DNA from: Chthoniobacteraceae bacterium
Lineage (GTDB): Bacteria > Verrucomicrobiota > Verrucomicrobiia > Chthoniobacterales > Chthoniobacteraceae
Assembly (NCBI GenBank): GCA_044348365.1
Contig: JBIKSY010000001.1
Coordinates: 9,225-73,224, forward strand
Direction of reading: 5' to 3'
DNA length: 64,000 nucleotides
Position numbers and translations under genes: made by a program. Positions 2,094 through 38,980 of the stretch are shown piece by piece (the first letter of the stretch is position 1; the number at the start of each line of letters is the position of its first letter). Under the pieces are notes generated by a model, which made no database searches, was not told the DNA's origin, and saw only the letters and a program-made list of their open reading frames with translations.

Positions 2094-2524
2094 ACGTTCA
2101 GGAACTGCCGCTGCTCAACGCCTCACTCAACACCCTGGCCACCCTCCTGATTGTCGCGGGCCTCATTGCCATCAAGGCGGAACGCAAAAGTCTTCACCGC
2201 ATCCTGATGGGGGGCGCCATCGTGGTGTCCGCAGCGTTTCTGACGTCGTACCTGATCTACCATTTTAACGTGGTGGCCGTCACTAGGTTCACCCACACCG
2301 GTTGGCCGAAGACGCTGTACTATTTCATCCTGATCACGCACGTGCCGTTGGCGGCCTTGGTGCCCCCGCTTCTTGCGCTCACGATCGTGCCCGCAATCAA
2401 GGGGCGTTACGAGGCGCACAAGCGTTGGGCGCGGATCACCGCCCCCGTGTGGTTGTATGTTTCCGTGACGGGTGTCCTGGTATATTTGATGTTGTACGTT
2501 TGGTATCCGCCCGTTGTGGGCTGA
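2090..2524 (+). CDS. DUF420 family membrane protein (oxidase-assembly associated)
   Basis: About 144 aa with four predicted TM helices. Resembles DUF420 (LNASLNTLATLLIVAGLIAIK..., HKRWARITAPVWLYVSVTGVLVY). ATGA overlap with the SCO1 stop. Confidence 0.75.
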   Translation: MNVQELPLLNASLNTLATLLIVAGLIAIKAERKSLHRILMGGAIVVSAAFLTSYLIYHFNVVAVTRFTHTGWPKTLYYFILITHVPLAALVPPLLALTIVPAIKGRYEAHKRWARITAPVWLYVSVTGVLVYLMLYVWYPPVVG

Positions 2525-2552
2525 GCCGCGTCCCGCCTTTTTTCAAAACCTC

Positions 2553-3725
2553 ATGGAAGCCACACACCCAAACCTCGAACCGTCCCGGGAGAAAGGGAAA
2601 CTGCCCCGCGTGCTGGTGGGTATGAGCGGAGGGGTGGATTCGTCCGTGGCGGTGTGGCTTTTGAAGGAACAGGGCTACGAAGTCGTCGGCGTGACGATGA
2701 AGGTCTGGCCCCAGGACTGCATGTCGCGGGCCGAGGACAAGTGCTGCGGGCCGCAGGCGATTGCAGACGCGCGTGGCGTGGCACACGCCCTGGGTGTCGC
2801 GCACTACGTGGTGGACGAGGCGGACGCCTTTGAACGGCAGGTCATTGACTATTTCACGGCGGAATACCGGGCGGGGCGCACCCCGAACCCCTGTGTCATG
2901 TGCAACGAGAAGGTGAAGTTTGGAAACCTCTGGGCCAAGGCAAAGGCGGTGGGGGCCGAGTACATCGCCACGGGCCACTATGCAATGGTGGACCACCTTC
3001 CGGAACGCTCCGTGCTGCGCAAAGGCAAGGATCCCCGCAAAGACCAGAGCTACTTTCTCTTCAGTCTCAGGCAGGAGCAGTTGAGCCGTTCGCTGTTTCC
3101 CTTGGGCGGGATGGAAAAGCCGGAGATCCGTGCGATCGCCCGCAAACTGGGCCTGAAGACGGCCGACAAGGTGGACAGTCAGGAGATCTGTTTTGTGCCC
3201 GGAAACGATTACAAGGCGTTTCTCAAGTCGCACCTGGGCACCACCGAGTTTCAGCCGGGCGGGATCTTTGACAAACACGGCAACCGGCTCGCCGAGCACG
3301 AGGGGATCGAGATGTACACCATCGGGCAGCGCAAGGGCCTTCCCGGAGGTTCCCCCAAGCCTGTGTACGTGATTGATATAGATCCTGAAACACGCAGCGT
3401 GGTCGTGGGGGACGCCGAGGATCTTGTTCTTGGAGAGTTTGAGATCGACCATTGCCACTGGAACCTGGCCTCGGCCGAAGCCGGTGAGCCGTTTCCCTGC
3501 ATCGTTAAAATCCGGTATGCGCATCCAGGCGCAGAGGCTTGGGTTTTTCCCGGGGCCGACGGGCGGGCTCTGGTCAGACTTAAGGAACCGCAAAGAGCTG
3601 TGACCCCAGGACAGGCCGCTGTCTGCTATCAGGCGGATGCTGTGGTGGGTGGCGGCTGGATTGCCCGCGGAATCACAGGGCAGGCAAAACTGAGTGTAGC
3701 GGCGGGTGTTACCGTGGCGGGTTAA
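2553..3725 (+). CDS. mnmA: tRNA-specific 2-thiouridylase MnmA
   Basis: PP-loop VLVGMSGGVDSSVA, NPCVMCN motif, KDQSYFL motif. ATG at 2553 chosen over the upstream alternative start. Confidence 0.9.
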   Translation: MEATHPNLEPSREKGKLPRVLVGMSGGVDSSVAVWLLKEQGYEVVGVTMKVWPQDCMSRAEDKCCGPQAIADARGVAHALGVAHYVVDEADAFERQVIDYFTAEYRAGRTPNPCVMCNEKVKFGNLWAKAKAVGAEYIATGHYAMVDHLPERSVLRKGKDPRKDQSYFLFSLRQEQLSRSLFPLGGMEKPEIRAIARKLGLKTADKVDSQEICFVPGNDYKAFLKSHLGTTEFQPGGIFDKHGNRLAEHEGIEMYTIGQRKGLPGGSPKPVYVIDIDPETRSVVVGDAEDLVLGEFEIDHCHWNLASAEAGEPFPCIVKIRYAHPGAEAWVFPGADGRALVRLKEPQRAVTPGQAAVCYQADAVVGGGWIARGITGQAKLSVAAGVTVAG

Positions 3726-23277: not shown

Positions 23278-24000
23278 ATGACTGAATCAAAACCCTGTGC
23301 AGTGGTCACCGGCGCCGCGCGCGGAATCGGCAGAGCCCTGGCCGCGCGCCTCCTCAAGGAAGGCTACCGCGTCGTCTTAAGCGACGTGGACGAGGCCGCC
23401 CTGCTGGAAACCACCAGCGCGCTAGGCTCCCCGGATGCCGTCGCGTGCCGAGCCGATGTTAGTTCCGCGGCAGACTGCGCGCGTCTTGCCGGGTGCGCCG
23501 GCACGCCGGGCGGCATCGCGCTGTGGATCAACAATGCGGGGCTCGCCCGCCACCGGGCGATCGTCGACTACACCGAGGCGGAAATCGACCTCATGCTTTC
23601 GGTCAACCTCAAGGGGACGATCCTTGGCAGTCAGGCCGCCCTGCGGGCGATGGCCCCACTGCGGGCCGGCCACATCATCAACATCATTTCCACCGCGTCG
23701 CTGCGGGGCATTCCGTCGGAGACCGTGTATTGCGCCGCAAAGTGGGGTGTGCGCGGCTTCACCCAAGGGCTCCGCGAAGAGGCTGCCGCCGTGGGGGTGC
23801 GGGTCACCGCGCTCCTGCCCGGCGGAGTGGACACCGGGTTTTGGAAGGACGCCGTTTCGCGGAATATGCCGACGGAGGATTTTCTCACCGCCGAACAGGT
23901 GGCCGACGCGGTGGTGGCGCTGGCGCGGATGGATGCGTCCGTTGTCCCGCAGGAACTGGTGCTGCGCGCACTCAAAGACCGGGACTTCGCCCATGTCTAA
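23278..24000 (+). CDS. short-chain dehydrogenase/reductase (SDR)
   Basis: Cofactor motif VVTGAARGIGRALA, NNAG, and catalytic YCAAKWGV (YxxxK). Confidence 0.85.
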   Translation: MTESKPCAVVTGAARGIGRALAARLLKEGYRVVLSDVDEAALLETTSALGSPDAVACRADVSSAADCARLAGCAGTPGGIALWINNAGLARHRAIVDYTEAEIDLMLSVNLKGTILGSQAALRAMAPLRAGHIINIISTASLRGIPSETVYCAAKWGVRGFTQGLREEAAAVGVRVTALLPGGVDTGFWKDAVSRNMPTEDFLTAEQVADAVVALARMDASVVPQELVLRALKDRDFAHV

Positions 24001-24829
24001 GTCCAAGGACGCCCCCAGCGTGGAACATCCGTTCCGGACCGTCGAAATTTCGGACCCCGCCCTGGAGACCGACGGGCTCCGTTGGGTGACGGTGAAGAGC
24101 CGTGCCCTCGGCCAGCGCTGCGACGCCTGCGTGTTTGAGTGCCCGGGCGCGGCGGATGCCGGCCCGGTACCGGTGGTTATTCTGCTGCACGGCGTCTACG
24201 GAAGCCATTGGGCGTGGGCGCTCAAGGGAGGGGCCCACCGGACCGCCGCGAGGCTGGTCTTCGAGGGGGCGATCCGGCCCATGGTGTTGGTGATGCCCAG
24301 CGACGGCCTGTGGGGGGACGGCAGCGGCTATCTCCCGCACCGAACCCAGGATTTTGAGCGTTGGATTGTCGAGGAGGTGCCTTTGGTTGCCCGGTTGGCG
24401 TCGTCCGCCTGCTCGGCGGAGTCGCCTGTCTTTATCGCGGGGCTTTCCATGGGGGGCTTCGGGGCGTTGAGGCTTGCCGCCAAATACCCGCGGAGGTTTG
24501 CCGCTGCCTCCGCCCATTCTGCGGCCACCCATTTTGACCAGCTGCAGCCCTTTGTGGAGGAACATCCGGCGACGTTCACAGTGCTCGAGGAGGACCGTTC
24601 GGTGCTCGACCAAATGTTGCGCTCGAGGGACGTCCTGCCGCCCTTCCGCTTCGACTGCGGGCGGGAGGACATCCTGCTGGAAGGCAACCGCGAGCTGCAC
24701 AAGGCGCTGGTTGCGGCCGGCGTGCAGCACACTTACGAGGAGTTTTCCGGAGGGCACCAGTGGCCTTACTGGACAGAACACCTCGAGGATACGCTCCGGT
24801 TTTTCGAAGCCTCTCTGCCGCCCCGGTAG
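23993..24829 (+). CDS. alpha/beta hydrolase, putative esterase family (esterase D-like)
   Basis: ATG 23993 overlaps the SDR stop by 8 nt. LLHGVYGSHWAW, nucleophile elbow GLSMGGFGAL, C-terminal GGHQWPYW. Confidence 0.75.
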   Translation: MSKSKDAPSVEHPFRTVEISDPALETDGLRWVTVKSRALGQRCDACVFECPGAADAGPVPVVILLHGVYGSHWAWALKGGAHRTAARLVFEGAIRPMVLVMPSDGLWGDGSGYLPHRTQDFERWIVEEVPLVARLASSACSAESPVFIAGLSMGGFGALRLAAKYPRRFAAASAHSAATHFDQLQPFVEEHPATFTVLEEDRSVLDQMLRSRDVLPPFRFDCGREDILLEGNRELHKALVAAGVQHTYEEFSGGHQWPYWTEHLEDTLRFFEASLPPR

Positions 24830-24831
24830 GC

Positions 24832-24938
24832 CCGGGCGCTTCCTCCGCGGCTTCTCCGCGTGGGTTTGGGAAATACTAAGGCGGGGCTGAAAGCCCTTTG
24901 AGCAGGGGACACTCGCCCGCGGGCACGCCTTCGCCCCT
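24832..24938. repeat. 107-bp direct repeat, left copy (dead duplicate of the DUF2293 gene 3' end)
   Basis: Aligns base for base with 36479-36585; I count 7 mismatches. The minus strand reads RGEGVPAGECPLLKGLSAPP*, versus ...RGEGVPAGECPLLKGLSSAP* in the intact gene. Confidence 0.9.
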
Positions 24939-24940
24939 CG

Positions 24941-24965
24941 CCCTACTTCGCGGACTCGCGTCTAA
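24941..24965. repeat. 25-nt repeat CCCTACTTCGCGGACTCGCGTCTAA (left terminal copy)
   Basis: Identical 25-mer at 36285-36309 in direct orientation. The first 16 nt recur as a reverse complement at 36457-36472. Confidence 0.9.
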
Positions 24966-24977
24966 AAACGGCTATTT

Positions 24978-25552
24978 TCAGGACTTGGTTTTATCGGAGA
25001 TTTTCCCGTTGGTGCAGTAGCAGCACTGCCTGCCGTAGGCATAGTGGCTGCCTTTGAACGAGGTGGGGCTTGCCGAGCGTCCTTCGATGCTCAGCTCCTT
25101 GACTCCCGGTGCTTTTGCGAAGGATGTGGCAACGTGTCCCACACTGTTTGGATTCTTGGCCACCTCGGATGCAATCTGTCCGTTGCCCGCCAATTTCTGG
25201 GCAGTTGGTTGGGCGTGCCCTTTTGATCGTGTCTTGGCCGGTCACTGAGTACCGCGGCAAACCGAGCCGCCGTGACCTCCACACGCATCGTCCGCTCATA
25301 ATTCAACTGAAGATGCTTCGCGAAGAACTCAAACGTTTTTCGTGCGGGTGCATTTGTCAGAACCGAGGATTGCGTCGGCTGCAAAATAACCGCGGCGATT
25401 CGAGCCACGGACCACCCGCATCAAACATCCCGCCACCTCCCGCCATCGTGCACCGACGTCCTTGGACCAAAGACGCCGTCCAGCCGCCCGAACTCGAGCC
25501 TCAGCCGCTCCGTCGCAAGTTTGACTCTCTTAGTACGTGCCACCAAAGCCAT
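24978..25552 (-). pseudogene. decayed PstS-family (phosphate-binding-like) substrate-binding protein fragment, frameshifted
   Basis: Three minus-strand frames carry consecutive pieces resembling the PstS family: ...NAPARKTFEFFAKHL..., then MAGNGQIASEVAKNPNSVGHVATSFAKAPGVKELSIEG...SHYAYGRQCCYCTNGK. The PstS pattern as I remember it is SGT..F, ...IGYV..., VK.L.I.G, YPLSR.LY.YTNG. No single intact frame exists. Confidence 0.4.
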
Positions 25553-25710
25553 CTTCGATGTCTCACCAGCGCGCAGCGTGGCCCCTCGGCAGTCGCCGCA
25601 GTTTGTTTACCAAATTTGAAACTAGCACATTCAAAAATTCCGACCTAATTAGGGGGGTTTCCTAGATCGCCCCCATTCGAAATCCTGCGGCGCTTCAGGG
25701 AGGGTGAGCT

Positions 25711-28700
25711 TTGTCTGATCGCAACTTTGATTTTAATTTTATGAATATTAAGTGTCTAGGGAACGTTTGTTTGCGTTTTTTACCGGTGTTTGTTTCGGTC
25801 ATTACCGTTTTTGTCGCCGGCTTGGAGACCCTCTGCGCTGAGGATTTGAAACTCGGAACCACCCAAATCACCCGGTCCTCTGGCGTGATTTTGAATCCCA
25901 TGCCCGCGGCGGGAAATGTGCAGCCTACCGTCTCGATGGGCGGCGGCCACACTCTGGCGGTGGATCAGGTTGGGACCCTCTGGGCCTGGGGCAAAAACGA
26001 CAAGGGCCAGATCGGGGACGGCAGCACCGAGAACCGGAATGCTCCCGTGAGGATTGAGCGGGACGGTGTGCGTTGGGTGGGAGTGGCCGCCGGGTTGGAT
26101 TTTTCGCTTGCGATCGACAGCGATGGGAAGCTGTGGTCTTGGGGCTCCAACGCGGCCGGTCAACTCGGCGACGGCACCAATTCTGATTCGCTGATTCCCA
26201 AGCAAGTTGGTTCGGCAACCGACTGGAGAGCGGTCTCAGCGGGAGACTTCCACGCCTTGGCTTTGAAAAGTAGCGGCGACCTGTATTCATGGGGCAGTAA
26301 TCAGTCTGGGCAGCTCGGGCGCTCCCTTACCGCCGTGTCGGGGGTGGTGCCTTCGATGAGCATGACTCCAGGGCAAGTGACTGGAACTTGGAAAGCCGTC
26401 TCCGCGGGCGGTTCTCATTCGCTCGCCATCAGTTCAAACAATGCGGCTCAGTCTTGGGGCGCGAACTACAAAGGGCAGCTTGGCCGCAACACCGTCTCCG
26501 AGACCGATGGTACGCCTCTGGATGCGTTCGGTGGTGTTTCCGTTGACAGCGTGGCCGCCGGTGGCGATTTCAGCGTGCTGGTCAAAAGCGGTGGCGGAGT
26601 TGATGTGTACGGCGACAACCAGTACGGCCAATTGGGCGACGTCGCCCTTCCCTCGGGCGCTTATAACAACACCGGGGCGGCTTCTGTGCCGCTTCCTCTT
26701 GCCTCGACTGTCAGCCTCGTCGTGGCCGGAAGGCAGCACGCCCTCGCGCTCCTTCAGGATGGCAGTGTGAAGGCGTGGGGCCGGGACGATTCCGGCCAGG
26801 CGCCCGCTTCGGTGGATCTCGGGGGCGGTACCCCGGCTGGGGTTCACGCGGGGGGTAAAAACTCACTGGTTGTGTTTTCTGACGGCTCCATTTCTACCTT
26901 CGGCCGGAACATCGAGGGCCAGCACGGAGACGGCGCCATTCAGATCCAGTCGATTCCCGTTAACAAGTTTCCCTTGAGGTCTTACGCCCAGGTGGAGGTG
27001 GGCGAGCGGCACACCCTCGCGATTGACCACGACGGCAAGCTCTGGGCGTGGGGCGGCAACTCCGCGGGCCAGCTCGGTGACGGGACCATCGCGGATTCTT
27101 CAGTCCCCGTCACCCCCAACGGTCTCGGTGTAGGCAACTGGACGAAGATCGCGGCGGGTGCCAATAACAGCGCGGCGATTAATGCGACAGGCGAATTGTA
27201 CATCTGGGGGTCCAACTATGACGGCCAGTTTGGAAACGGTTCCACAACCCCGGGACTCTCGCCCGTGAAGGTGGCGGGGACGTGGAGCGAAGTGGCAATC
27301 GGAGAGGGGCATGTCTTAGCGATCAACTCCGCGGGAAAGCTTTTCGCGTGGGGCAACAACATGAACTCGCAGCTGGGCTGGGCGAAAGTTGGGAACCAGA
27401 CAAACCAGTTGAGTCCAAAGCAGGTCGGCAGTGCCGCTGATTGGGCCAAGGTGACGGCAGGTCAGAACCACTCCCTCGGCCTCCGTGGCACGTCCCTCTA
27501 CGGATGGGGACAAAACGTGCTCGGGCAGTTGGGCAACGGCAGCAACACCGACGCCACCGCCCCCGTGAAGATCGGGACACTGTCTTGGGACACGATTCGG
27601 GCGGGCGGTTCTACGTCTGCGGGGATCTCGGGCGGAAAACTCTACGTGTGGGGCAACAACGACAAGGGCCAGTTGGGTAATGGGGGAACCCAGCCCTCAA
27701 ATGCACCAAAGCAGTTCGGCGACAAGGGGACCCTGCCGTTAGATCCATCGCAAGAGATTTTAAAGAATCTTAGATTTATGGCGGTTGGGGTCAGTCCGAC
27801 AGCCATCGCTGCGGTCACTACCGACGGGAAAATCTGGGTCTCCGGCTCGAACGATGGCGGCAGAATCGGCTACGGTTCGGTGTCGGGCACAAAGGTCCCG
27901 GTAAAGCTGAGCATTCCAGTCGGCCCTAGCACCGTCTCCTCTGTCTCCTCTGTCTCGTTGGGAGGGGCATCGGGAGCAGCCATAACTTCGGTGAAGGCGC
28001 TCTACGTATGGGGCTTCAACAAGTATGGCCAGTTGGGGGAATCGGAGCAGGACTTGGGTGCCCACAGAGCAATTATTCCGCAGGCTCCCTCCGTCAACGT
28101 GCTGGCGACAGCGAAAAACGGAAGCTTGAACACTTCCTCCGCGGGACCGGACCTCGCCTTTGGAGAGGGGGATGCAGTCGTGTTCACTGCGACCCCTTCG
28201 GGAACCGGCCCGTTCACTTGCCAGTGGCGCAAGGACGGCGTGGACATCAACGGAGCGACGGGGCCGACCCACGAGATTGCCTCTGCAGGCCCCCTGAGCG
28301 CGGGGGTCTATGATGTGGTGGTGTCCAGTGCGTATGGTTCGAACGTGGAGTCCGCGAACACCATCACGGCGGTTCTCTGGCTCGCACCGCAGATCACGGA
28401 GCAACCGGTGGCCGTGAATGCCCTCAGCGGAACCAATGCCGCACTCAATGTCACTGCAACAGGAACCGCCTTGTCTTACGCTTGGAAGTCAGTCTCCGGC
28501 GGAGCGGTGATCGCTACCGGCGCTTCTTTTTCTGCGCCTGCGCGAGACGACGATTACAATGTGACCGTCTCTAGCTCCAAGAACGGGACGGCCGTCGACG
28601 TCATCAGTAACACCGTAGCCGTGAGGTTCTACGACCAAGTCGTACTGCAGGCGCCCGACACCAACAGGGTTGGCTCAGGCTCCCAGACTATCGTCAAGTC

Positions 28701-30492
28701 TCTTGCCTCCGGCAGCAGCCTGTCCTTATCGGTCGGTGTCACAAGCGACGTGACTGGGATTCAGTATCAGTGGCGGAAGGACCTGCAGGACATTCCGGGA
28801 GCAACAGTCGGGACTTTGAATGTGACGGCCACGGCGGCCACGGCGGGATTGTACGACGTGGTCGTGTCGAATCCGGCTTCCAGCGTCACCAGCAGTGGGA
28901 TTGCAGTTCGTGTGTTCACGCCTCCCGTGTTCACGCGTCAACCGGCCTCTCAGACCGTGGCCGACGGCAGGGCGGTCATCTTGTCAGTATCGGCTCAGGG
29001 TTACAGCATACCCACGCTTCAGTGGTACGGTCCGGATGGCCTTATCGCTGGAGCAACAGCCTCCACCCTGACGGTGACGGGCTTTAATGCAGGGAAGGCG
29101 GGCTCATACTATGCGGTGGCGACAAACGAAAGCGGCTCGACAACAAGCGAGAAAGCGACTCTTTCCCTGCCCGGGGTTGTGGCGGGGAAGCCGACCATTC
29201 TGATCCATCCGCAGAGTCAGGCCGTAGTTGCGGGAAGCACCGTGACCCTCACTGTGAAAGCAATCGATGCGACCCAGTACCAATGGAGAAAAAACGGGGT
29301 GCCGATTCCCGGGGCGACCGGTACGGATTTGGTGGTTGGCAACGTGACTGCAGTGGATGTCGCCTCCTACTCGGTTTTGGTGAGCAACTCTGTGACCTCG
29401 GTGTTGAGTACCGCGGCCACGATCTCGCTACGCTCCGTTGTGGACGGGGACGCCCGCAGGAACCTCTTCAACGCGGTGTTTGGCTCCAATGGAGGGCTGT
29501 TCTCCGCGCGCCTCAGTGGAACCGCCCTGCCTCCGGGAACGCCGCAGGGGTACATCCGGCTGAATTTTACGCGGGCCGGAACCGTCTCCGGCGCTTATAC
29601 TTCCGGGAACAAGGTTATCCGCTTCGCATCCCGTTTTGTGCTTAGCGGTGCGAACCAGGTGGCGGAAGTCCCCCAGGTGGGTGGATCTTCAACCACCCTC
29701 CGGTTTACCATCACCGCAGATCCTTCAAATCCTGTAGCCAGTGTCCGGTTGGTTCCCTCTGACAACCCGCAGTCGGCTACGACCAGCGAAGTGGTTCTCG
29801 CCCGTCTGGGGGTGAAGAACCTGACGCTTTCAGGGATTTACACCGGGACATTTCAGGATCCTTCCACCGGCATGTTCCACGGATACTCCTCCACCAAGGT
29901 GAACCTCAATTCGGGTATCGTGGCTGTCTCGGGGATGGTGCCGCTCACCGGTGAGCGTTTTACAGCCACCTCTTCCATGTACGCTGACCCCCGGGGTGTC
30001 AGTCCGGCCTCGATGACCGACCTCGTGGTGCGGTTGAGCGAAACACGGCGCTTGTTCTCAACCTGGAAGCTCGAAACGGCCTCGTTGGGAGGAGACGCTG
30101 TGGTTGTCACCGGAACGTCAAATGGCGTGCCCTACGACGTGACAGGCGCGAAGTACTCGCCCGCGGCACTCGGTTCACTGTTGGCGCCCTTTGTCTCCAC
30201 GAGGGATCAGGCGGTAGTGACCTACAATGGAACGGAAGTGTCGCGTTTCACAGCTCAGGCGAGTCGGCTCATTCCGGAGGTTTCGGCTTTCGCGGCGGCG
30301 GGAGGACGGTTCTCCACGCGGTTCCTCGCCGGCACCGGGGTGGTTTCCGGCTTGGTGACACTCAAGCCCGGAGATGCGCCGGTGCCTTTCACCGGGGTAA
30401 TCCTGCAGGGCGGTTACCGCACCAATGGAGGAATCCTAGGGGTTGGCGTCACGCCCGCTGGCGACACCCTCCGGTTCGAACCGGCAAACTAA
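25711..30492 (+). CDS. giant secreted protein: 14 RCC1 repeats (two 7-bladed propellers) + 5 Ig-like domains + about 380-aa uncharacterised C-terminal region
   Basis: Fourteen G(Q)(L/I/F)G(D/N)G-type blade signatures (GQIGDGS, GQLGDGT, GQFGNGS, ...). Five Q(W/Y)RK-type Ig modules (e.g. CQWRKDGVDINGATGP...GVYDVVVSS). Signal peptide MNIKCLGNVCLRFLPVFVSVITVFVAG. The start is either TTG 25711, preceded by GGAGGG, or ATG 25741. Confidence 0.85.
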   Translation: MSDRNFDFNFMNIKCLGNVCLRFLPVFVSVITVFVAGLETLCAEDLKLGTTQITRSSGVILNPMPAAGNVQPTVSMGGGHTLAVDQVGTLWAWGKNDKGQIGDGSTENRNAPVRIERDGVRWVGVAAGLDFSLAIDSDGKLWSWGSNAAGQLGDGTNSDSLIPKQVGSATDWRAVSAGDFHALALKSSGDLYSWGSNQSGQLGRSLTAVSGVVPSMSMTPGQVTGTWKAVSAGGSHSLAISSNNAAQSWGANYKGQLGRNTVSETDGTPLDAFGGVSVDSVAAGGDFSVLVKSGGGVDVYGDNQYGQLGDVALPSGAYNNTGAASVPLPLASTVSLVVAGRQHALALLQDGSVKAWGRDDSGQAPASVDLGGGTPAGVHAGGKNSLVVFSDGSISTFGRNIEGQHGDGAIQIQSIPVNKFPLRSYAQVEVGERHTLAIDHDGKLWAWGGNSAGQLGDGTIADSSVPVTPNGLGVGNWTKIAAGANNSAAINATGELYIWGSNYDGQFGNGSTTPGLSPVKVAGTWSEVAIGEGHVLAINSAGKLFAWGNNMNSQLGWAKVGNQTNQLSPKQVGSAADWAKVTAGQNHSLGLRGTSLYGWGQNVLGQLGNGSNTDATAPVKIGTLSWDTIRAGGSTSAGISGGKLYVWGNNDKGQLGNGGTQPSNAPKQFGDKGTLPLDPSQEILKNLRFMAVGVSPTAIAAVTTDGKIWVSGSNDGGRIGYGSVSGTKVPVKLSIPVGPSTVSSVSSVSLGGASGAAITSVKALYVWGFNKYGQLGESEQDLGAHRAIIPQAPSVNVLATAKNGSLNTSSAGPDLAFGEGDAVVFTATPSGTGPFTCQWRKDGVDINGATGPTHEIASAGPLSAGVYDVVVSSAYGSNVESANTITAVLWLAPQITEQPVAVNALSGTNAALNVTATGTALSYAWKSVSGGAVIATGASFSAPARDDDYNVTVSSSKNGTAVDVISNTVAVRFYDQVVLQAPDTNRVGSGSQTIVKSLASGSSLSLSVGVTSDVTGIQYQWRKDLQDIPGATVGTLNVTATAATAGLYDVVVSNPASSVTSSGIAVRVFTPPVFTRQPASQTVADGRAVILSVSAQGYSIPTLQWYGPDGLIAGATASTLTVTGFNAGKAGSYYAVATNESGSTTSEKATLSLPGVVAGKPTILIHPQSQAVVAGSTVTLTVKAIDATQYQWRKNGVPIPGATGTDLVVGNVTAVDVASYSVLVSNSVTSVLSTAATISLRSVVDGDARRNLFNAVFGSNGGLFSARLSGTALPPGTPQGYIRLNFTRAGTVSGAYTSGNKVIRFASRFVLSGANQVAEVPQVGGSSTTLRFTITADPSNPVASVRLVPSDNPQSATTSEVVLARLGVKNLTLSGIYTGTFQDPSTGMFHGYSSTKVNLNSGIVAVSGMVPLTGERFTATSSMYADPRGVSPASMTDLVVRLSETRRLFSTWKLETASLGGDAVVVTGTSNGVPYDVTGAKYSPAALGSLLAPFVSTRDQAVVTYNGTEVSRFTAQASRLIPEVSAFAAAGGRFSTRFLAGTGVVSGLVTLKPGDAPVPFTGVILQGGYRTNGGILGVGVTPAGDTLRFEPAN

Positions 30493-30526
30493 CCAAACCA
30501 CGGAAAACCATTTTTTAACTCAGACA

Positions 30527-33500
30527 ATGTTTCATTCCAATCCTCTCGCTCAGCGGCTCGTGGGCCTCTTGATGCTAAGTACCTACCTCGGCGTGTCGAC
30601 GATTCTGCCAGCCCGTGTTTACGGGGCTGCGCCAAGCGTGGTCACCGCGGATACCACCCTTGATTTCTATGGAGGCACCAGGGACGGTGGGGGTGCCAAT
30701 GGGTCTGGGGGCTATTTCCTGTCCGCGGGGGCCCTCACGTTGAGCAACGGGGTCCTCAGGAACTTCGTGACCAAGGGCGGAACCGGAAGCGGCGGGGGAG
30801 CCGGATTTGGCGGGGCCCTTTTTGTGGGGGATGGCGCCACGGCCGAGGTTAAAAACATTTCCTTCATCGCAAACGGCGCCGTCGGTGGAAAAGCCGATGT
30901 CACAGCGACTCAAGGGGGGATGTTGAACAGCCGGAACAAGTTCAGTGGCAACCCGTTTGGCGGTGTGGCGGGCTCCGGTTTCAACGGGCGCAACTTCAAT
31001 GACTACGGGGTGTTTGACAGCGGTGACGGAGGGGCAGGGGACAACGGCTTGGGAGGCGCCTTCAGGCAGCAGAGGATTGGAGGCGCGGGCGGCAGCGGGG
31101 GGAACGGCTCCAATGGATGGGGCACGGATCCCTTCGCGATCACGGCTCTGATCCAGGCTGGCCTTGGCATGAGTTCGGTTGTTCTCGATATCGTGAGCAA
31201 CGTGGCGGAGATCACCTCGGAATTCGCCAACCCCCTCACTTGGAATCTGGTGGTGGACAATGCCATTACGGTGGCCAAGCTTGCGATTGACACGGTCAAC
31301 GCTGGGATGGACCTAGCCCAAGCGACGCAGGCGTTGATCACCTACCACATGAAGCTAGATGACGGTTATGTGGGTTTGGGAGGCGATGGTGGCGCCGGAG
31401 GTGAGGGAGGATCAGGCGATTTTGGCTTGGGTGGCGGTGTCGGTGGGGCCGGTGGAGCCGGTGGGAACGCCGCAGGTGGGGCGCGCGGCGGTTACGGGGG
31501 ATCCGGGGGAACCGGCGGTGCAGGCGGGTTTGGCGCAGGCGGGGGACGTGGTGGCGATGGGGGGGCCAAGGGCAACGATGGTTCCGTTCCCGCCTCCAGA
31601 GAAAAGGCCGCCGACGGGGATGGAGGTGCCGGCGGTGCGGGTGGGTTCGGCGGTGGTCTGGGCTCCACGGGTTCCAACGGTGGCGCCGGAGCGGGCGGGG
31701 CCGGGTTTGGCGGATCGATCTTTGTACAGTCGAACGGCAAGCTCACCATCTCGGGAAACACCACGTTCGACGCGGGTTTTGTCCGCGGCGGTTCGGGCGT
31801 TGCGGCTGGAGCGGTGGACGGCGCACTAGCGGGCCCTACGGGTCAGGCTGTTGGCACGGATATTTTCGTGATGAAGGGGGCAGAGCTGCTGTTCAAGCCG
31901 GGTGCCGGCAACATTATCACGCTCAACGGCTCGATCGCGGACGACAGCGCGGCCTCGATCAGTCTCGACGGCGGGATCGACGCACAGTCGGTCTACCAGG
32001 TTGGCAATGGAGCCGATGTACACTTCGAGGATGGGCTGACGATTTTAAACGGCGCAAACACCTACACCGGAAGCACCAAGATCGGGGCGGGTGCGGTCCT
32101 TCAGGCTCAGGATGGCGTCGGGATCCACAACCACAGCCAAATCGTGTTTGAGGGCGGGGTGTTGCAGTCCAGTGGCAGTTTCGTGCGAGGGGTGGGCTCC
32201 GACAGCACTCAGGTTTCCTGGACCGGGAGCGGCGGCTTTTCCGCTGCGAACGGCGACCTCACCGTGAGTTTGTTTGGAACCGCGAATCCAAAACTCACCT
32301 GGGGGATGGGCGACTTTGTGCCGACCACATCCAGCCTCGTGTTTGGCTCTGCAACCTCGACCGGTTCGGTCACTTTTACCAATGACATTGACCTTGGTGC
32401 TTCGGGCGAAAGGAACATTTCAGTCGTCGCGGGTGTCGACTCACAGTCGGTGGCGATTTTGTCCGGTGCCCTCTCTGGAGGCGCAATGTTAACTCTCAAT
32501 GGCGCAACGGACGAACAACCCGGCGTGCTGGTGTTGACCAATCCGGCAAACAACTACACCGGTGGAACGCGGATCAACTCCGGTGTGCTGCGTTTGGAAA
32601 ATGCCGGCGCCCTGCCCACGACCGGCGTCGTAACCGTCAACGGCGAACTCGACCTCTCCGATGCGGGGACGGGTGTTGCGGGTTCGGGAAACCGCACCAT
32701 CGGCGGACTCGCGGGAGCCGCCAGCGGGGTGGTTTCGATGGGAGGCGTGGTGCTGACGGTCGATCAGTCCGAAGACACCACGTTTTCTGGGGCGTTGGTT
32801 GACGGCGGATTTGCCGGAGGCGAGGGAGCCCAGTTGGTCAAGAAGGGAAATGGTTCGCTCACCTTGAACGGCTCAAACGTTTACACGGGAGGGACCACCG
32901 TGACGGGGGGGAGTTTGATTCTCGGGCCTCTCGGTGTACTTGCCTCGCAGTCCGTGACTGTTGGCGTTGGCGCCTCGATCACGCTTGAGGCCGGCGGATT
33001 GATTCCCCAGGAGACCGCGCTGATTCTCGACGGTGGTGCCAACCTCAAGGATCCCTTCGTGGCCATAGAGTCCTTGAACGGCGGAGGAACACTCACCCTC
33101 ACCAACACGGAGTTTACCGTCCGGGAAGGGACCTTCAGTGGCCCGATCAGTCAGTCCGGAAGCAGCTACATCAGCAAGGAGGGGGACAACGCGCTCAACC
33201 TTGCCGGCAATGTGACCGTGTCGGGTGTTTTGGTGAATGCCGGCAGTGTGGAATTCAGTGGGTTGTCCGTGGATGTGCCGCAGGTGGTTGTCGCCGAGGG
33301 TGCCAACGTGCGGACGATGTCTGTCACTGTGCTGCAAAGTGCGGACTTCCGGAAATCGGGCGCTGGACAGATGCTCATGATGGGTTCCTCCAACGCGGCT
33401 GTTTTCACGGTGGCAGAGGGCACCATGGTCCTGGAGGGAGGCAACGCCCGCTTTCGCGACGGTGCGACGGTGAACGTCGGCCCGAACGGACTGGTTGCGG

Positions 33501-36049
33501 CGGCGTCCGCCGGTCCCGGGGCGGCGGCCTCTCCCGCGCCTCCCGCTCCCGCTGTGCTGAGGCTTGTTACCACCGGTTCCAGCAACGCAGGGTTGCAGAA
33601 GATCGGCGTATTGAATGTGACCGGGGCCCACGTCCTCGGGCAGGGTGGGGATGTGCTCGCCGCGGGGACTTACAATTTCGGTGGGACGGGGACGACCAAG
33701 AACCTGCTCACCGCGAGTTTGGGCACCGCGCGCGAAGGAGACATCAATGTCACGGCGAATACGGACTTTGGGATTTATAAACAGACGTCCCAATCCTCGG
33801 TGTCCGCAAACAAGCTGACGGTGTCCGGCGAGCAGACGGCTCTGGGTGTTTACATGCCGCTGAACCTCAACACAATCGAACTGAAGGATTCGGTAATTCT
33901 GAATCTCTTCGAGGGTTCCGCCGTAAATTCCGACGTGAATGTGTCTGTGGACTCTGCGGCAACCCTTTCTCTCAACGGCATCATTCCGGTGGCTGGAATG
34001 GATGCGGTACAGATCGGCTCATTGAGTGGGACTGGAACGGTGTTCCAGGGATCCACGCTGTTGCGGGTTTCAAGCGGAACATTCTCTGGTCGTCTGCTTG
34101 TAGACCCGAACAACCGCCAGACCGTTGCTCCCGCGGAGGTGACCGGAACCGTGGGTATTAGTGGTACGGTTGAAACCAATGTGAGAGTCGCCGATGGAGG
34201 CACCCTCACTTTAGGTGGCGGTCCTGGCACCAACGAATCCCTCAAAGGTTCTCTGACCGTGGGCACCCTCGGCAGTGTGACAATTATGCCCGGCTATGTC
34301 GTTGCATCGGGAGCGGGCTCGGTGACAAACGCAGGGAGCCTCTCCAACGCTGGTACGGTGGCCAGCAGCATGGTGAACTCCGGCACCTTCCAGAACAACG
34401 GGGTGGTCCAAGGGGCCTTCACCAGCACGGGCGTCGTGACCGGTTCCGGAACCTACATGTCTGGCATGCAGATCACCGGTGGCGTGCTCAAGCCGGGGAA
34501 TTCGCCGGGGGAAATCATCTCGGGAAGCCGGCTGTCGGTGACGAACGCGACGGCGCTCATTGAGATTGGCAGCCTCAGCGCAAACAGCATCACCGCCAAC
34601 GGTACGACTTGGGCGAACGGTTTCGGCAGGATCGTTCAAACCACTGGTGCCCCGATTGTGTTGGGGCCCGGAGTGGTTCTGGAACTCAGTGGTTACGTTC
34701 AGCAACCTGGATCTACGCTCGCCTTCAACGGTTCGGCTCGCGGCACGACACTCAAGATTTTTGACACTGCCGACGGACAAATCATCGGGACGTTTGCCTC
34801 GTTACGAAACGGTGCTTCCGCGGTCAATCTTCCTGACCCGGCGCGGCAAGACTTGACGAGCGGTTACGTGTTGAACCTTTGGACAGGTGAGCTGGTTGGC
34901 ACGGGCCTGCCATGGGGGGTAGCTGGAACCCCAGCTGGGGCAGTCAACTGGTCCTTGGGTAATGATCTTCTCGATTCATCGATCGGAGGTTGGAATAGTT
35001 TGAATGCCAACCAGCGTGCAATGCTTACGCAGCTCAACGTCGGTGAACGCCAGTTCCAAGGGGGCACCCTCGTAAAGTTGATGCTTGCAGCTCCAGACGC
35101 TGAGGCAGCCAAGCTGGTGCTCGATAAAGCCTCGCCCGAGGCGTTTGTCGGTCTCTCCGATTTCGGCCTCCGCGTGGGTCGCTCGCACCTCGAGCAGGCC
35201 CGCACGATGGACACGGTGGCGCAGCAAGGAAAACTGGGAGTCTTCACCGGTTGGAACAACTACAACTTCGGCTCAAACAGTTCTCAAAACCGGGCGGATT
35301 ACAAAATCAACCACAACTCCGGTATCCTCGGGGTCCGCTATGCGTTCGGCGGCGGGCTGGCTGGGAGCGTGTTTGCCACGCAGGGAAGCGGTTCCACGCG
35401 GTCGGAATTTCTCAATGTCTCGACCGAGGGGCAAACTTTTGGGTTTGGGGCAAATTATGACGGGGGTAGTGAATTGCCCTTCGGTGTCCACGTCGGCCTG
35501 ATCGGTGGCGTATTTGATTCCAACGGCACCCGGCAAACCAATTCGGGCCTCGCGCGTTTTAGCGGGGCCAATTCCTCCACCTTTCAGGGGGCGTTTGGCG
35601 GTGCTTACCGCATTGTCTCAAGGGCGTCCTCGGTTTTGACCGCGGATCTTGGGGTGACGCTTGCAACCTCCGATGTGGATGGAATTTCCGAAACCGGACC
35701 CTCGGGTGAGAATCTGCGGGTGGGATCCCAGTCCAACAGCAGCGCCATTGTGGAACTAGGTTTGGGTGGCGCACACCGCGTGAACTCAAAGCTTGGTGTC
35801 AACGGTCGGATCGGAGTCGAACACAACCTGCAAAGTGCCCGGCGCGATGTTACCGCCAACGTGGTTGGGGAGCCCACCGCGTTTGGGGTTTCGACCGCAG
35901 GGTTGGGGGAGACTCACTACGTTTTCTCTGTGGGCAACCGTTATGACCTGACCGAGCGTTTCAACGTGGGTGCCGACTTCAAGGGGACTTTCGGGAAGGA
36001 TGTCCGGGTTGGTACGGCCCTGTTCCTAAATGCTTCGTACGGTTTCTAG
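30527..36049 (+). CDS. 1840-aa autotransporter adhesin: Pmp-like GGA(I/L/V)/FxxN motifs, glycine-rich region, PATR beta-strand repeats, C-terminal beta-barrel
   Basis: Signal peptide (LVGLLMLSTYLGVSTILPARVYG). GGALFVGDG...ISFIANGA and GGSIFVQSNGKLTISGNTTFDAG motifs. PATR-like units (LVKKGNGSLTLNGSNVYTGGTTVTGGSLIL; NNYTGGTRINSGVLRL). Barrel domain ending ...LFLNASYGF. Confidence 0.85.
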   Translation: MFHSNPLAQRLVGLLMLSTYLGVSTILPARVYGAAPSVVTADTTLDFYGGTRDGGGANGSGGYFLSAGALTLSNGVLRNFVTKGGTGSGGGAGFGGALFVGDGATAEVKNISFIANGAVGGKADVTATQGGMLNSRNKFSGNPFGGVAGSGFNGRNFNDYGVFDSGDGGAGDNGLGGAFRQQRIGGAGGSGGNGSNGWGTDPFAITALIQAGLGMSSVVLDIVSNVAEITSEFANPLTWNLVVDNAITVAKLAIDTVNAGMDLAQATQALITYHMKLDDGYVGLGGDGGAGGEGGSGDFGLGGGVGGAGGAGGNAAGGARGGYGGSGGTGGAGGFGAGGGRGGDGGAKGNDGSVPASREKAADGDGGAGGAGGFGGGLGSTGSNGGAGAGGAGFGGSIFVQSNGKLTISGNTTFDAGFVRGGSGVAAGAVDGALAGPTGQAVGTDIFVMKGAELLFKPGAGNIITLNGSIADDSAASISLDGGIDAQSVYQVGNGADVHFEDGLTILNGANTYTGSTKIGAGAVLQAQDGVGIHNHSQIVFEGGVLQSSGSFVRGVGSDSTQVSWTGSGGFSAANGDLTVSLFGTANPKLTWGMGDFVPTTSSLVFGSATSTGSVTFTNDIDLGASGERNISVVAGVDSQSVAILSGALSGGAMLTLNGATDEQPGVLVLTNPANNYTGGTRINSGVLRLENAGALPTTGVVTVNGELDLSDAGTGVAGSGNRTIGGLAGAASGVVSMGGVVLTVDQSEDTTFSGALVDGGFAGGEGAQLVKKGNGSLTLNGSNVYTGGTTVTGGSLILGPLGVLASQSVTVGVGASITLEAGGLIPQETALILDGGANLKDPFVAIESLNGGGTLTLTNTEFTVREGTFSGPISQSGSSYISKEGDNALNLAGNVTVSGVLVNAGSVEFSGLSVDVPQVVVAEGANVRTMSVTVLQSADFRKSGAGQMLMMGSSNAAVFTVAEGTMVLEGGNARFRDGATVNVGPNGLVAAASAGPGAAASPAPPAPAVLRLVTTGSSNAGLQKIGVLNVTGAHVLGQGGDVLAAGTYNFGGTGTTKNLLTASLGTAREGDINVTANTDFGIYKQTSQSSVSANKLTVSGEQTALGVYMPLNLNTIELKDSVILNLFEGSAVNSDVNVSVDSAATLSLNGIIPVAGMDAVQIGSLSGTGTVFQGSTLLRVSSGTFSGRLLVDPNNRQTVAPAEVTGTVGISGTVETNVRVADGGTLTLGGGPGTNESLKGSLTVGTLGSVTIMPGYVVASGAGSVTNAGSLSNAGTVASSMVNSGTFQNNGVVQGAFTSTGVVTGSGTYMSGMQITGGVLKPGNSPGEIISGSRLSVTNATALIEIGSLSANSITANGTTWANGFGRIVQTTGAPIVLGPGVVLELSGYVQQPGSTLAFNGSARGTTLKIFDTADGQIIGTFASLRNGASAVNLPDPARQDLTSGYVLNLWTGELVGTGLPWGVAGTPAGAVNWSLGNDLLDSSIGGWNSLNANQRAMLTQLNVGERQFQGGTLVKLMLAAPDAEAAKLVLDKASPEAFVGLSDFGLRVGRSHLEQARTMDTVAQQGKLGVFTGWNNYNFGSNSSQNRADYKINHNSGILGVRYAFGGGLAGSVFATQGSGSTRSEFLNVSTEGQTFGFGANYDGGSELPFGVHVGLIGGVFDSNGTRQTNSGLARFSGANSSTFQGAFGGAYRIVSRASSVLTADLGVTLATSDVDGISETGPSGENLRVGSQSNSSAIVELGLGGAHRVNSKLGVNGRIGVEHNLQSARRDVTANVVGEPTAFGVSTAGLGETHYVFSVGNRYDLTERFNVGADFKGTFGKDVRVGTALFLNASYGF

Positions 36050-36284
36050 GTCGGAGTGTTGCCGGTGGCTTGCCGGAGCACGAGCGTTGGTTGATGTGAA
36101 CCCAGTATTTTGATGGGGCCTCAAACAACTTCCAGCGCTAGGTCCATCAGCGGCAAACGGGGCTTTAAGATTGCCGCAACGGGGAGTCGGGCGTGACCGG
36201 TAGACGATTGCCGGACACACAGGAGGCAATATTTAACGCCCCGCAGCGGCTACGTGGTTTCAGTGTGGTCGCTCGCCGCTCTAT

Positions 36285-36472
36285 CCCTACTTCGCGGACT
36301 CGCGTCTAAGTCTGGACCAACTGAATCTGACGCTTCCTGAACAGGCACCGCCGAAGATCTACAGGCCCGACCCGAATTTGAACTGAGAAAACGTGTAGTG
36401 CCGACCTTTTAAAGACAAAGACTGAAAATGAGAGGTTTAGCTTTTTTGACCTCTTCAGTCCGCGAAGTAGGG
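36285..36472. repeat. 188-bp MITE-like unit bounded by perfect 16-nt inverted repeats (CCCTACTTCGCGGACT / AGTCCGCGAAGTAGGG)
   Basis: Read directly: 36285-36300 and 36457-36472 are reverse complements. The interior looks AT-richer by eye and has no ORF. Confidence 0.7.
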
Positions 36473-36478
36473 CTAGGA

Positions 36479-36585
36479 CCGGGCGCTTCCTCCGCGGTTT
36501 CTCCGGTTGGGTTTGGGAAATACTAAGGCGCGGAGGAAAGCCCTTTGAGCAGGGGACATTCGCCCGCGGGCACGCCTTCGCCCCT
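36479..36585. repeat. 107-bp direct repeat, right copy (overlaps the functional 3' end of the DUF2293 gene)
   Basis: See the left copy at 24832-24938. Covers the last 21 codons, the stop, and 44 nt downstream of the CDS at 36523-37206. Confidence 0.9.
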
Positions 36586-37206
36586 ACGGTAGCGTCCGAG
36601 CAGCTTGCGCGAACGCTCCGCGAGCATGCGCCGCACCTCGCGCCGCGCCCCCTTGACGCGGGGAATCTCCATGTGGTCGTACGCGGTCGTCGCGTGGCGC
36701 ATCCACGCGATGCTCGCCGCCTCGGCCCGCCGCTCGATGGGGATCCGCTCCGTGCGCGCCACCGTGCCGCTTCCCACGGGCACCGCGTGTCGGGCGATTG
36801 CTTCCGCCAACTGCACGGCCAGTGCCAGATGCTCCGGGGCGAACGCAAGAAAGGCCAGCACCGCGGCGGTGAAATCCTCGGCGTACTGCATCTGTTTGAC
36901 CTCTCGTTTGCGGCGGCCCGCCTCCAGTTTGCGGGTGTAGGCGGGATCTTCCCTCTCCACACGGAGCTCCTCCCGGATGACCTCGATCCTCGCAGCCGGC
37001 GCCCAGACGCCGCGCGAAAACATCTTGTTGCCCCGCTTCTCCTGCACCGTCCAACTCGGCCCCGCCTTTTTGACGCGGCCGGTCAGGCCGGGATCGCCGG
37101 GCGGCAGCAGCACCCAGCCTTGGGGCACGGGCAGTACCTCACCTGAGGGGAGGCGGATGGTTTCAGGGCGCGGACCGGGGACGGCAATACGGGTTTGATC
37201 GGGCAC
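36523..37206 (-). CDS. DUF2293 domain protein
   Basis: Conserved core AIARHAVPVGSGTVARTERIPIERRAEAASIAWMRHATTAYDHMEIPRVKGARREVRRML matches DUF2293 as I remember it. Confidence 0.7.
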   Translation of the reverse strand: MPDQTRIAVPGPRPETIRLPSGEVLPVPQGWVLLPPGDPGLTGRVKKAGPSWTVQEKRGNKMFSRGVWAPAARIEVIREELRVEREDPAYTRKLEAGRRKREVKQMQYAEDFTAAVLAFLAFAPEHLALAVQLAEAIARHAVPVGSGTVARTERIPIERRAEAASIAWMRHATTAYDHMEIPRVKGARREVRRMLAERSRKLLGRYRRGEGVPAGECPLLKGLSSAP

Positions 37207-37270
37207 AGCTCGGAGGTACCCAGCCGGAGGGCTGCTGGCAAGCGCGGGCGCCGGACGGTTTGGGCGCGGC

Positions 37271-38980
37271 CTATTCCGACGCGCGCAGGTGCTTGATCTG
37301 CAGCTGCAACGAAACGTTCCCCTGATAGGCGTTCCGCGTCAGCTCGAAGACAACGTCCCACGGCGCAGGCGGAAGGGGTGCGGGCGCATTGAACCAGATC
37401 GCCTTCACGGTGGACTGGCCCTGGCGCAGCTGCACCTGGACGTGCTTTTCCTTGAGGAGCCTGGGCTGGCCCGCCGGTTGTACCCCACGGGCCACCAGCA
37501 GGGGGATCGGGTTCTCCATTCCAAAGGGGCCCAGCTTTTCGTACACGTCCAGCAGCTGTAGCTGGAGCGCCGCCAGTTCTACCTCCAGCTCCGGCGCAAT
37601 CACCTTGCTACGCGGGCCCCGACCCTGTCCGGAAGCGGCTGCGATCCGCTCAAACGCCTCCCGAAACAGCTCGAACGCCTCCAGCCGAAGTGAAAGTCCC
37701 GCGGCCATCTCGTGGCCGCCGCACTTGAGGAGGTGGGCTTCGCAGGCGCGCAGCGCTTCCACCAGACGGAACCCCGCCACCGAACGGCCGCTGCCCTTGC
37801 CCATCCCGTTTTCATCAAACCCGATCACGATGGCGGGCCTGTGGTATTTTTGGACCAACTTGGAGGCCACGATCCCGATCACGCCCGGATGCCACCCCGG
37901 GCCGCCCACCACGATCGAACAGGACTCCGCCCCGTGGGCCGACGCCAAAAGCTGGGCCTCAGCCAGTTGAAAGACCTCCTCGACCACCAGCTTGCGTTGG
38001 TTGTTTTGTTTTTCCAGTGACTGCAGCCGCTCGAAAACCTCGGCGCTCGCCGTCGAAGTCAGCAGCGTGAAGGACTCGTAGGCGGCGCCCAGCCGGCCTG
38101 CGGCGTTGAGGCGTGGCGCCAGCTTGAAGCCGATGTCGGTGGTGCTCGCGGGATGCGTGACTCCGGAGATGTCGAGCAGCGCCTTGAGTCCTGCCCAGCG
38201 GGTGTGCTGGAGCTGGGACAGGCCCTTGTGCACAAGCACGCGGTTGTCCCCGACCAGTGGCACAAGGTCAGCCACCGTGCCCAGGGCCACCAGATCAAGC
38301 GTGTCGCGCAAGTCAATGGCCTCGGTGCGGCGCTTTTTCAAAAGGCCGTGCGCCACCTTGAAGCAGAGTCCCACGGTGCACAGGTACTCGAACGCCCCGT
38401 GGACCTTGGGGTTCACCATCGCCACGCACGCGGGCAGCGCCGCCGCCGGCTCGTGGTGGTCGATGATGAGCACGTCGATTCCCCGCGCGTTGAGCGTGCG
38501 CACCTCCTCCAGCGAGGAAGTGCCGCAGTCCAGCGCCACCAGCAGCCTCGGCTGGTACCGGCTCAGACAGCACTCCAGTCCCTCGGGGGTCAGTCCGTAG
38601 CCTTCCTCGGTCCGGTGGGGGATGTGGCAGTGGACATCGGCGCCCAGCGCCGTGAGCACCTGGTAAAGCAGCACCGAGGAGGTGACGCCGTCCACGTCGT
38701 AGTCGCCAAACAGGAGGACCTGCTCGCGGCGGTCGATGGCGAGGAGCAGCCTGTCCACGGTGGCCTCCATGCCCCCCAGTGCGAAGGGATCCCCGAGGGT
38801 GCCCAGGCGCGGCTCGAGAAACTTCCGCGCGTCCTCGACTGCGGCATAGCCCCGGAGGCAAAGGATTTCCGCCACCAGAAAGGGAAGCCCCAGCTCCGCT
38901 GCAAGACGCTGGACCTGGCTGTGGTCCGGTGCCTGGGGCAGAAGCCACGGTTCCGGCAAGGGGGCGGGGGTGGCCGTCAC
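37271..38980 (-). CDS. recJ: single-stranded-DNA-specific exonuclease RecJ
   Basis: DHH motifs (LLFGDYDVDGVTS, DCGTSS, IIDHH). DHHA1 motif (GGHEMAAGLSL). GTG start at 38980 overlaps the upstream stop (GTGA) and gives 569 aa. The longer listed ORF runs into the desulfurase gene. Confidence 0.85.
   Translation of the reverse strand: MTATPAPLPEPWLLPQAPDHSQVQRLAAELGLPFLVAEILCLRGYAAVEDARKFLEPRLGTLGDPFALGGMEATVDRLLLAIDRREQVLLFGDYDVDGVTSSVLLYQVLTALGADVHCHIPHRTEEGYGLTPEGLECCLSRYQPRLLVALDCGTSSLEEVRTLNARGIDVLIIDHHEPAAALPACVAMVNPKVHGAFEYLCTVGLCFKVAHGLLKKRRTEAIDLRDTLDLVALGTVADLVPLVGDNRVLVHKGLSQLQHTRWAGLKALLDISGVTHPASTTDIGFKLAPRLNAAGRLGAAYESFTLLTSTASAEVFERLQSLEKQNNQRKLVVEEVFQLAEAQLLASAHGAESCSIVVGGPGWHPGVIGIVASKLVQKYHRPAIVIGFDENGMGKGSGRSVAGFRLVEALRACEAHLLKCGGHEMAAGLSLRLEAFELFREAFERIAAASGQGRGPRSKVIAPELEVELAALQLQLLDVYEKLGPFGMENPIPLLVARGVQPAGQPRLLKEKHVQVQLRQGQSTVKAIWFNAPAPLPPAPWDVVFELTRNAYQGNVSLQLQIKHLRASE

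Follow-up and report, generated by a model that had tools for sequence, protein, structure and literature searches.

How did an 11.5-kb block carrying two giant surface-protein genes come to lie between two convergent genes, bracketed by a long direct repeat and short inverted ends and with no recombinase at hand? The question is raised by a 64,000-nucleotide stretch of a Chthoniobacteraceae genome (Verrucomicrobiota; GenBank assembly GCA_044348365.1, contig JBIKSY010000001.1, positions 9,225 to 73,224), here called the window and numbered from its first letter. A sequence-only reading of the window described the block and found that it fitted no standard insertion sequence (IS), transposon or integrative element. 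Comparison with related contigs, labelled L001 and so on below, points to an answer. Positions 24940-36473 (11,534 bp) are probably a composite transposon built from two directly oriented copies of an IS1634-family IS, now non-autonomous, which entered with an unusually long target duplication. What looks anomalous at first, an island that has inverted ends and a 112-bp repeat but lacks a recombinase, would thus be a known kind of element in a decayed state.

The duplicated target and its empty counterpart

The block is bracketed by a direct repeat that had been put at 107 bp with 7 mismatches, with the advice to align both copies formally. An ungapped comparison bears the repeat out and extends it by five nucleotides at its start, giving 112 nt at 24827-24938 and 36474-36585 with 8 mismatches (92.9% identity), the sole repeat longer than 100 nt within the window. 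The left copy begins on the esterase stop codon TAG itself (24827-24829), not 2 nt past it as proposed, and includes a dead duplicate of the 3' end of the DUF2293 gene (its last 20 codons and stop). The right copy runs directly into the live DUF2293 gene. Counting one further nucleotide, which is mutated on the left, the two copies of the target duplication occupy 24827-24939 and 36474-36586.

Related-population contigs, reached through DUF2293 protein homologues, carry this site without the block. The sequence-only reading had predicted an esterase gene directly convergent on DUF2293, and this is the arrangement in L110 and L111, whose DUF2293 protein is 98% identical to that of the window. 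In L110 the two genes converge across a 46-nt spacer; L111 ends inside the esterase 3' end and has the same single-copy junction. Positions 1-1152 of L110 align with window 37625-36474 (97.9%) and positions 1041-3108 with window 24938-22860 (93.4%), and the 112 nt at L110 1041-1152 are common to both alignment blocks. With one occurrence in the empty site and two around the insert, these 112 nt bear the mark of a target duplication. L002 and L011, more distant at 88-94% identity, also lack the insert and likewise have an esterase gene convergent on DUF2293; all four empty sites are single-copy, and the simplest reading is that the site was ancestrally empty. A dispersed repeat of the repetitive extragenic palindromic (REP) type was considered as the source of the 112 nt and rejected, as the four empty sites each hold one copy of the sequence and the window has none outside the two repeat copies.

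Multi-copy ISs break many assemblies, and a chimeric metagenome contig joined through IS repeats could in principle imitate such an insertion. That explanation is extremely improbable here: assemblies from independent samples, made with independent assemblers, show both junctions again at 99.96-100% identity (the right one in L001, the left one in L206, L209, L210 and L211), and repeat copies that differ at 8 positions cannot be collapsed.

The empty sites L110 and L111 also polarise those 8 differences. Three derived substitutions lie in the left copy (24831, 24859 and 24884, or repeat positions 5, 33 and 58) and five in the right copy (36498, 36507, 36534, 36535 and 36559, or repeat positions 25, 34, 61, 62 and 86). 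Because the derived changes are interleaved along the repeat, they indicate independent drift after duplication and not an attL/attR chimera around one crossover.

This pattern bears on the resemblance to attL/attR that had been noted earlier, which would make the block an island placed in the DUF2293 3' end by a site-specific recombinase, its integrase since lost and its IS ends incidental. A direct repeat of ~100 bp that preserves a gene 3' end is typical of integrase islands, the cargo is atypical in composition, and the long duplication is absent from other copies of the IS described below. Nevertheless, such an origin is highly improbable. The derived substitutions are not partitioned around a crossover, the target is single-copy, and the repeat edges are transposon termini, with IS ends within 1-2 nt of both boundaries. 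The repeat also takes in all of the spacer between the two genes, as far as the esterase stop codon. The earlier statement that integrase and transposase genes are missing holds: no recombinase gene occurs within the window, no tyrosine or serine recombinase gene lies in or beside the insert, which consists of two intact giant open reading frames (ORFs) and decayed non-coding DNA, and no integrase occurs in any allele.

Insertion sequence remnants at both borders

Just inside the repeat copies, the 16-mer CCCTACTTCGCGGACT, for which 0.03 matches per window are expected by chance, forms a perfect inverted pair at 24941-24956 (plus strand) and 36457-36472 (minus strand). The arms reach 17 nt when the adjoining G (24940) and C (36473) are counted. 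The inverted ends of 16-17 nt reported earlier are therefore real, but the window holds three copies of the end and not two: a third perfect 16-mer, overlooked before, lies at 36285-36300 on the plus strand. Since the first 25 nt (CCCTACTTCGCGGACTCGCGTCTAA) are also the same at 24941 and 36285, the right end is a 188-bp unit (36285-36472) with inverted ends of its own.

A scan of the 16-mer plus two degenerate bases against one genome per species returned 97 stretches. About half seem fortuitous, falling within genes of unrelated phyla, and the remainder come from Chthoniobacteraceae, Terrimicrobiaceae and other Verrucomicrobiota assemblies. Around 80 IS ends were found in Verrucomicrobiota assemblies, with at least 15 in one metagenome-assembled genome. 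In the genome-assembly matches, the ends mostly lie ~100-160 nt from a contig end and combine a conserved interior with an outer YTAR flank, the pattern of a multi-copy IS that breaks short-read assemblies. The sequence-only reading had left room for the ends to be a dispersed repeat unrelated to this junction. Dispersed they are, as the termini of a multi-copy IS, but they are not unrelated, for they define the junction.

Full-length copies identify the family. In a long-read assembly, L027:5565-7593 is a complete IS of 2029 bp: its 16-nt inverted repeats are perfect, TTAG is duplicated at its flanks, and the product of its 609-aa ORF matches the IS1634-family model NF033559 at 310.4 bits (cutoff 100) as well as Pfam DDE_Tnp_1. 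A second copy, from a metagenome scan (L197:392-2425), measures 2034 bp and encodes a 598-aa transposase scoring 303.8 bits against the same model and cutoff; it is closer than L027 to the IS remnants in the window. The 16-nt inverted repeats are perfect in L027, L174 and L197 (2029-2034 bp) and have one mismatch in L159, L170 and L179. RefSeq plasmid homologues of the transposase, 24-37% identical, carry an IS1634-family annotation, and the closest plasmid copy, from Rhizobium sp. T136 (60% identical), is unannotated and has CTAG on both sides.

Against these references, blastn resolves each border of the block into a copy of the same IS. On the left, a 47-nt remnant of the transposase-proximal end (24940-24986, plus strand) begins with the 16-nt inverted repeat; 24941-24986 correspond to IS nucleotides 1-47 and are 95.7% identical to L197 and 90% to L027. 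On the right, 36285-36473 (plus strand) is an internally deleted copy resembling a miniature inverted-repeat transposable element (MITE). It joins IS nucleotides 1-25 (36285-36309, 100% to L197) to nucleotides 1872-2034 (36311-36472, 93.9% to L197) and closes with the right inverted repeat at 36457-36472. By tblastn, the last ~24 codons (36297-36368) are all that the window retains of a transposase. Searches of the window with blastn and tblastn against the reference IS returned no IS sequence or transposase fragment beyond these two end remnants. A MAFFT resemblance had suggested a right end of the left IS copy near 25650-25710; it proved spurious, as blastn with the close reference IS found none there.

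Two copies of one IS, both decayed, thus flank the cargo in direct orientation at the borders of the insert, which is the layout of a composite transposon. The verdict that the block matches no standard IS or transposon has to be revised accordingly: its ends are IS1634-family termini, and one allele from the same population, L207, still has the IS running inward from the left junction with the start of its transposase gene. As in the composites of the Tn9, Tn10 and Tn5 type, unrelated genes lie between two IS copies whose outermost inverted repeats have survived intact, the unit as a whole sits within a duplication, and relatives show the empty site. The differences are that the IS copies here are decayed, that the cargo consists of two giant surface-protein genes instead of resistance genes, and that the duplication is 113 bp long. 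Moreover, no second insertion site was found for this unit, whose mobility is inferred; the cargo would have moved together with its IS copies.

Internal deletion is a recurrent form of decay of this IS, as derivatives of 175-215 bp with TA-type flanks and differing deletion junctions occur in L016, L101/L126 and L106/L121. The 188-bp right unit likewise keeps both inverted repeats without a transposase, as MITEs and MITE-bounded mobile units do. In contrast to one amplified MITE family, the variable junctions look like recurrent independent deletions. One such contig shows a nested arrangement of 215 bp (L101:222-436, the same as L126), in which a 175-bp derivative is followed by CTAG and an inverted 36-nt left-end fragment. 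This nesting suggests that the IS inserted repeatedly beside its own ends.

The left border has a sister allele that is less decayed. A look-up of the esterase protein retrieved four further contigs (L206-L209), all of which encode this same 278-aa protein. L206 and L209 have the truncated junction of the window, and L208 breaks off within the inverted repeat. At 99.9% identity, L207 aligns with window 23311-24986, a stretch that takes in the left copy of the repeat, all three of its derived substitutions and the identical junction. It then continues for 777 nt into the IS up to the contig end, at 99.1% identity to L197, and no interruption of the transposase ORF occurs in the N-terminal part covered. 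The truncated and full forms share just ~39 nt, and a chimeric join in L207 is unlikely, provided that the final assembly k-mer exceeded 39 nt, as is assumed for the pipeline of the Joint Genome Institute (JGI). Where the window departs from the IS there is a short microhomology (GGnACTT), which fits a deletion. Most simply read, a full-length left IS was once present, and the allele of the window lost most of it recently.

Edges of the long duplication and a proposed order of events

The empty-site block reads ...CGG|TAGGACC...GCCCCTA|CGG..., a unit of 113 nt with TA at both edges; the final A of the left copy is now C. If the element is taken as G(24940)CCCTAC...GTAGGGC(36473), each of its ends joins next to a TA. 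Because TA makes up 1.4% of the dinucleotides in the window, its presence at both edges by chance is improbable (on the order of 1 in 1,000 to 1 in 5,000). A TA is also shared on both sides in eight of the nine other two-ended copies of the IS. The flanks read TTAG/TTAG in L027 and CTAG/CTAG in the L101 derivative.

The target sequence has a further resemblance to the element. Read towards the element, the target joints lie at CCTAC (GCCCCTAC / GGTCCTAC; window 36580-36587 and 24826-24832, empty site L110/L111), which matches the start of the inverted repeat over 5-6 nt (CCCTAC), and the target end also has CTTCGC in common with it. A preference for targets resembling the terminus of the element is one possible explanation, coincidence another.

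The repeat might also predate the insertion, as a tandem 112-nt duplication, or result from a circle with one copy that integrated by homologous recombination, so that no transposase made it. A tandem junction CCCCT|TAGG would offer a TTAG target of the preferred YTAR type, and the substitution pattern needs nothing more than two copies that were once identical. Even so, a non-transposase origin is very unlikely. It predicts TTAG on both sides, where CTCG and CTAG are observed; relatives show no insert-free tandem duplication, with four of four empty sites single-copy; and it requires an extra, unobserved event.

Long duplications have a precedent within the family. IS1634-family elements usually produce AT-rich duplications of 5-6 bp, but IS1549 and IS1634 are reported to generate long, variable direct repeats of 8-514 bp for which no mechanistic model exists (De Palmenaer et al. 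2008, PMC2266710). The element described here resembles IS1634 of Mycoplasma mycoides and IS1549 of Mycobacterium smegmatis in its DDE transposase family (NF033559), its IS length of ~2 kb, its short terminal inverted repeats starting with C and its target duplication of ~100 bp or more. It differs in its Verrucomicrobiota host and in the usual flank of its clade, which is TA or YTAR and not an AT-rich duplication of 5-6 bp. Moreover, the long duplication is seen once here and not at many copies, and the unit is an 11.5-kb composite with cargo instead of a bare IS. For the clade of IS that carries these ends, a duplication of 112-113 bp is exceptional.

The proposed course of events accommodates these features. 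A DDE transposase acting on the outermost left and right inverted repeats would have brought the unit in between the esterase gene and the DUF2293 gene convergent on it. Each end would have joined a TA dinucleotide of its own, the two lying 111 nt apart, in place of a single shared TA, and gap repair would have duplicated the 113 nt between them, sparing both flanking genes. The two copies of the duplication would then have drifted independently, and a microhomology-associated deletion would have removed most of the left IS together with its transposase gene. An insertion with a short duplication at the downstream TA would have cost DUF2293 its last 21 codons, and the long duplication leaves both flanking genes intact, which may be why this insertion survived. 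The long duplication itself would be the work of the transposase. It is possible, as a tentative extension, that transposases of this IS1634-family clade can join the two transposon ends to separate TA sites more than 100 bp apart.

Several points weigh against a composite transposon that entered in one step. Long duplications are missing from the nine other two-ended copies (five full-length and four short derivatives), which have TA or YTAR flanks only, and an all-against-all comparison of ~80 end flanks found no long overlap besides the present locus. One nucleotide per junction is off target (24939 is C where A is expected, and 36473 is C), which can be reconciled with the target only by assigning the terminal G...C to the element and allowing one substitution. 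L207, a metagenome contig assembled from short reads, breaks off within the IS, so that any cargo of that allele would lie beyond it. The composition of the insert, described below, is confounded by the amino-acid bias of its giant repeat proteins. Finally, a contig scan, a protein search and an exact look-up found the composite at no second locus, and movement of the unit is accordingly unproven.

This last point and the truncation of L207 also speak for a two-step origin, in which a single full-length IS made the 113-bp duplication and the cargo arrived later with a deleted second IS copy. A circle or segment bearing the IS could have delivered it by recombining homologously with the resident IS, as could another IS-mediated rearrangement, and the outer ends would then never have transposed the giant genes. 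L207 has the IS at the left junction, and its left IS is 99.1% identical to other copies as against 93.9% for the right remnant, so that the two may differ in age. The older-looking right remnant, however, adjoins the right duplication copy, which places an end of that age at the junction already, and gene conversion among IS copies can account for the 99.1% identity. Requiring more steps than a single composite transposition, the two-step origin is the less likely course, though the main rival.

Cargo, neighbouring genes and significance

Within the block, the decayed DNA begins at the left IS remnant. Abutting it is a 3'-truncated fragment of a PstS-like phosphate-binding gene (24978-25193, minus strand), recognised from the ORF list and a six-frame translation. 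Its 71-aa ORF carries the JGI name ABC-type phosphate transport substrate-binding protein, in agreement with the earlier identification, but a Pfam search of three conceptual translations gave no match, leaving the name as the sole support. About 500 nt of decayed, non-coding sequence follow (25194-25710). A 174-aa ORF called in several assemblies at 25124-25648 (plus strand) overlaps the phosphate-binding pseudogene on the opposite strand; a longer GTG-start version has no Pfam match, and the ORF is probably not a real gene.

The two cargo genes and the two genes flanking the block had been named correctly, as Pfam matches confirm for all four. The first cargo gene (25711-30492, plus strand) encodes a 1593-aa protein with RCC1 repeats and Ig domains (WD40_RLD, RCC1, Ig_3 and I-set). 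The direct-repeat families D1 and D3 at 25978-27707 are its internal RCC1 blade repeats and not repeats of a mobile element. The second (30527-36049, plus strand) encodes a 1840-aa autotransporter with PATR repeats (PF12951, TIGR02601) and, in its final 400 residues, a match to the autotransporter beta-domain PF03797 (E 6e-20). Some 235 nt of non-coding sequence (36050-36284) separate it from the right IS copy.

Relatives of this cargo are few. A protein search found the C-terminal domain of the RCC1/Ig protein to be rare, with 5 homologues, and a scan of JGI metagenome contigs returned no relatives of the domain. An exact look-up of the 1593-aa protein retrieved one contig, which starts inside the left inverted repeat. 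L109 carries the same pair of RCC1/Ig and autotransporter genes, with 67% identity in the RCC1/Ig C-terminal domain and with uninformative flanks.

The insert also stands apart in composition, as the sequence-only reading had proposed to check. Its GC content is 60.2% against 63.7% in the rest of the window, and tetranucleotide usage deviates most in its 5-kb windows (distances of 0.25-0.27 against 0.11-0.20 elsewhere). GC content at third codon positions is ~0.70 in the insert and 0.75-0.83 in neighbouring genes. The composition fits a foreign origin and is supportive of it, not decisive.

On the left, the block is flanked by the esterase gene (23993-24829, plus strand; PF00756, E 1e-19), and on the right by the intact DUF2293 gene (36523-37206, minus strand; PF10056), on whose side of the window the RecJ gene call also holds up. 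The flanks diverge unequally from L110, the esterase side being the more distant (93.4%) and the DUF2293/RecJ side the closer (97.9%), which suggests recombination between strains around the locus.

The 3' flank of DUF2293 varies among relatives in other ways. In L002 (10660-10830) and L011 the DUF2293 protein has 241 aa against 227 aa in the window, the ORF extending into the spacer repeats CAGATTTAGCAGATTTCGCAGAC / ATCTGCTTGATCTGCGTCATCTGCGGATAAC, which look like a small dispersed intergenic repeat of those genomes. In L006 (1669-3420), L007 and L008, with ~87% DNA identity to 36523-38188, an IS110-family element, which encodes a 422-aa DEDD transposase, follows the DUF2293 stop codon immediately and is inserted into a REP-like palindrome (CCGCAGATGACGG ... 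ACCGTCACAGATC). The DUF2293 3' flank has thus been struck by unrelated mobile elements in different lineages.

Collectively, the locus offers a natural case of the long duplications of the IS1634 family, complete with an empty site, polarised substitutions and a sister allele that bears the IS. The TA at both edges of its duplication makes independent target choice by the two ends a testable idea and, if that idea is true, would be a sequence-level clue to the origin of these long duplications. They may then also let an element insert where gene ends overlap while both genes survive. For uncultured lake Verrucomicrobiota, the locus documents the carriage of 11 kb of surface-protein genes between IS ends, and if the proposed mechanism holds, giant adhesin-type genes would be ferried among freshwater members of the phylum, moved in trans.

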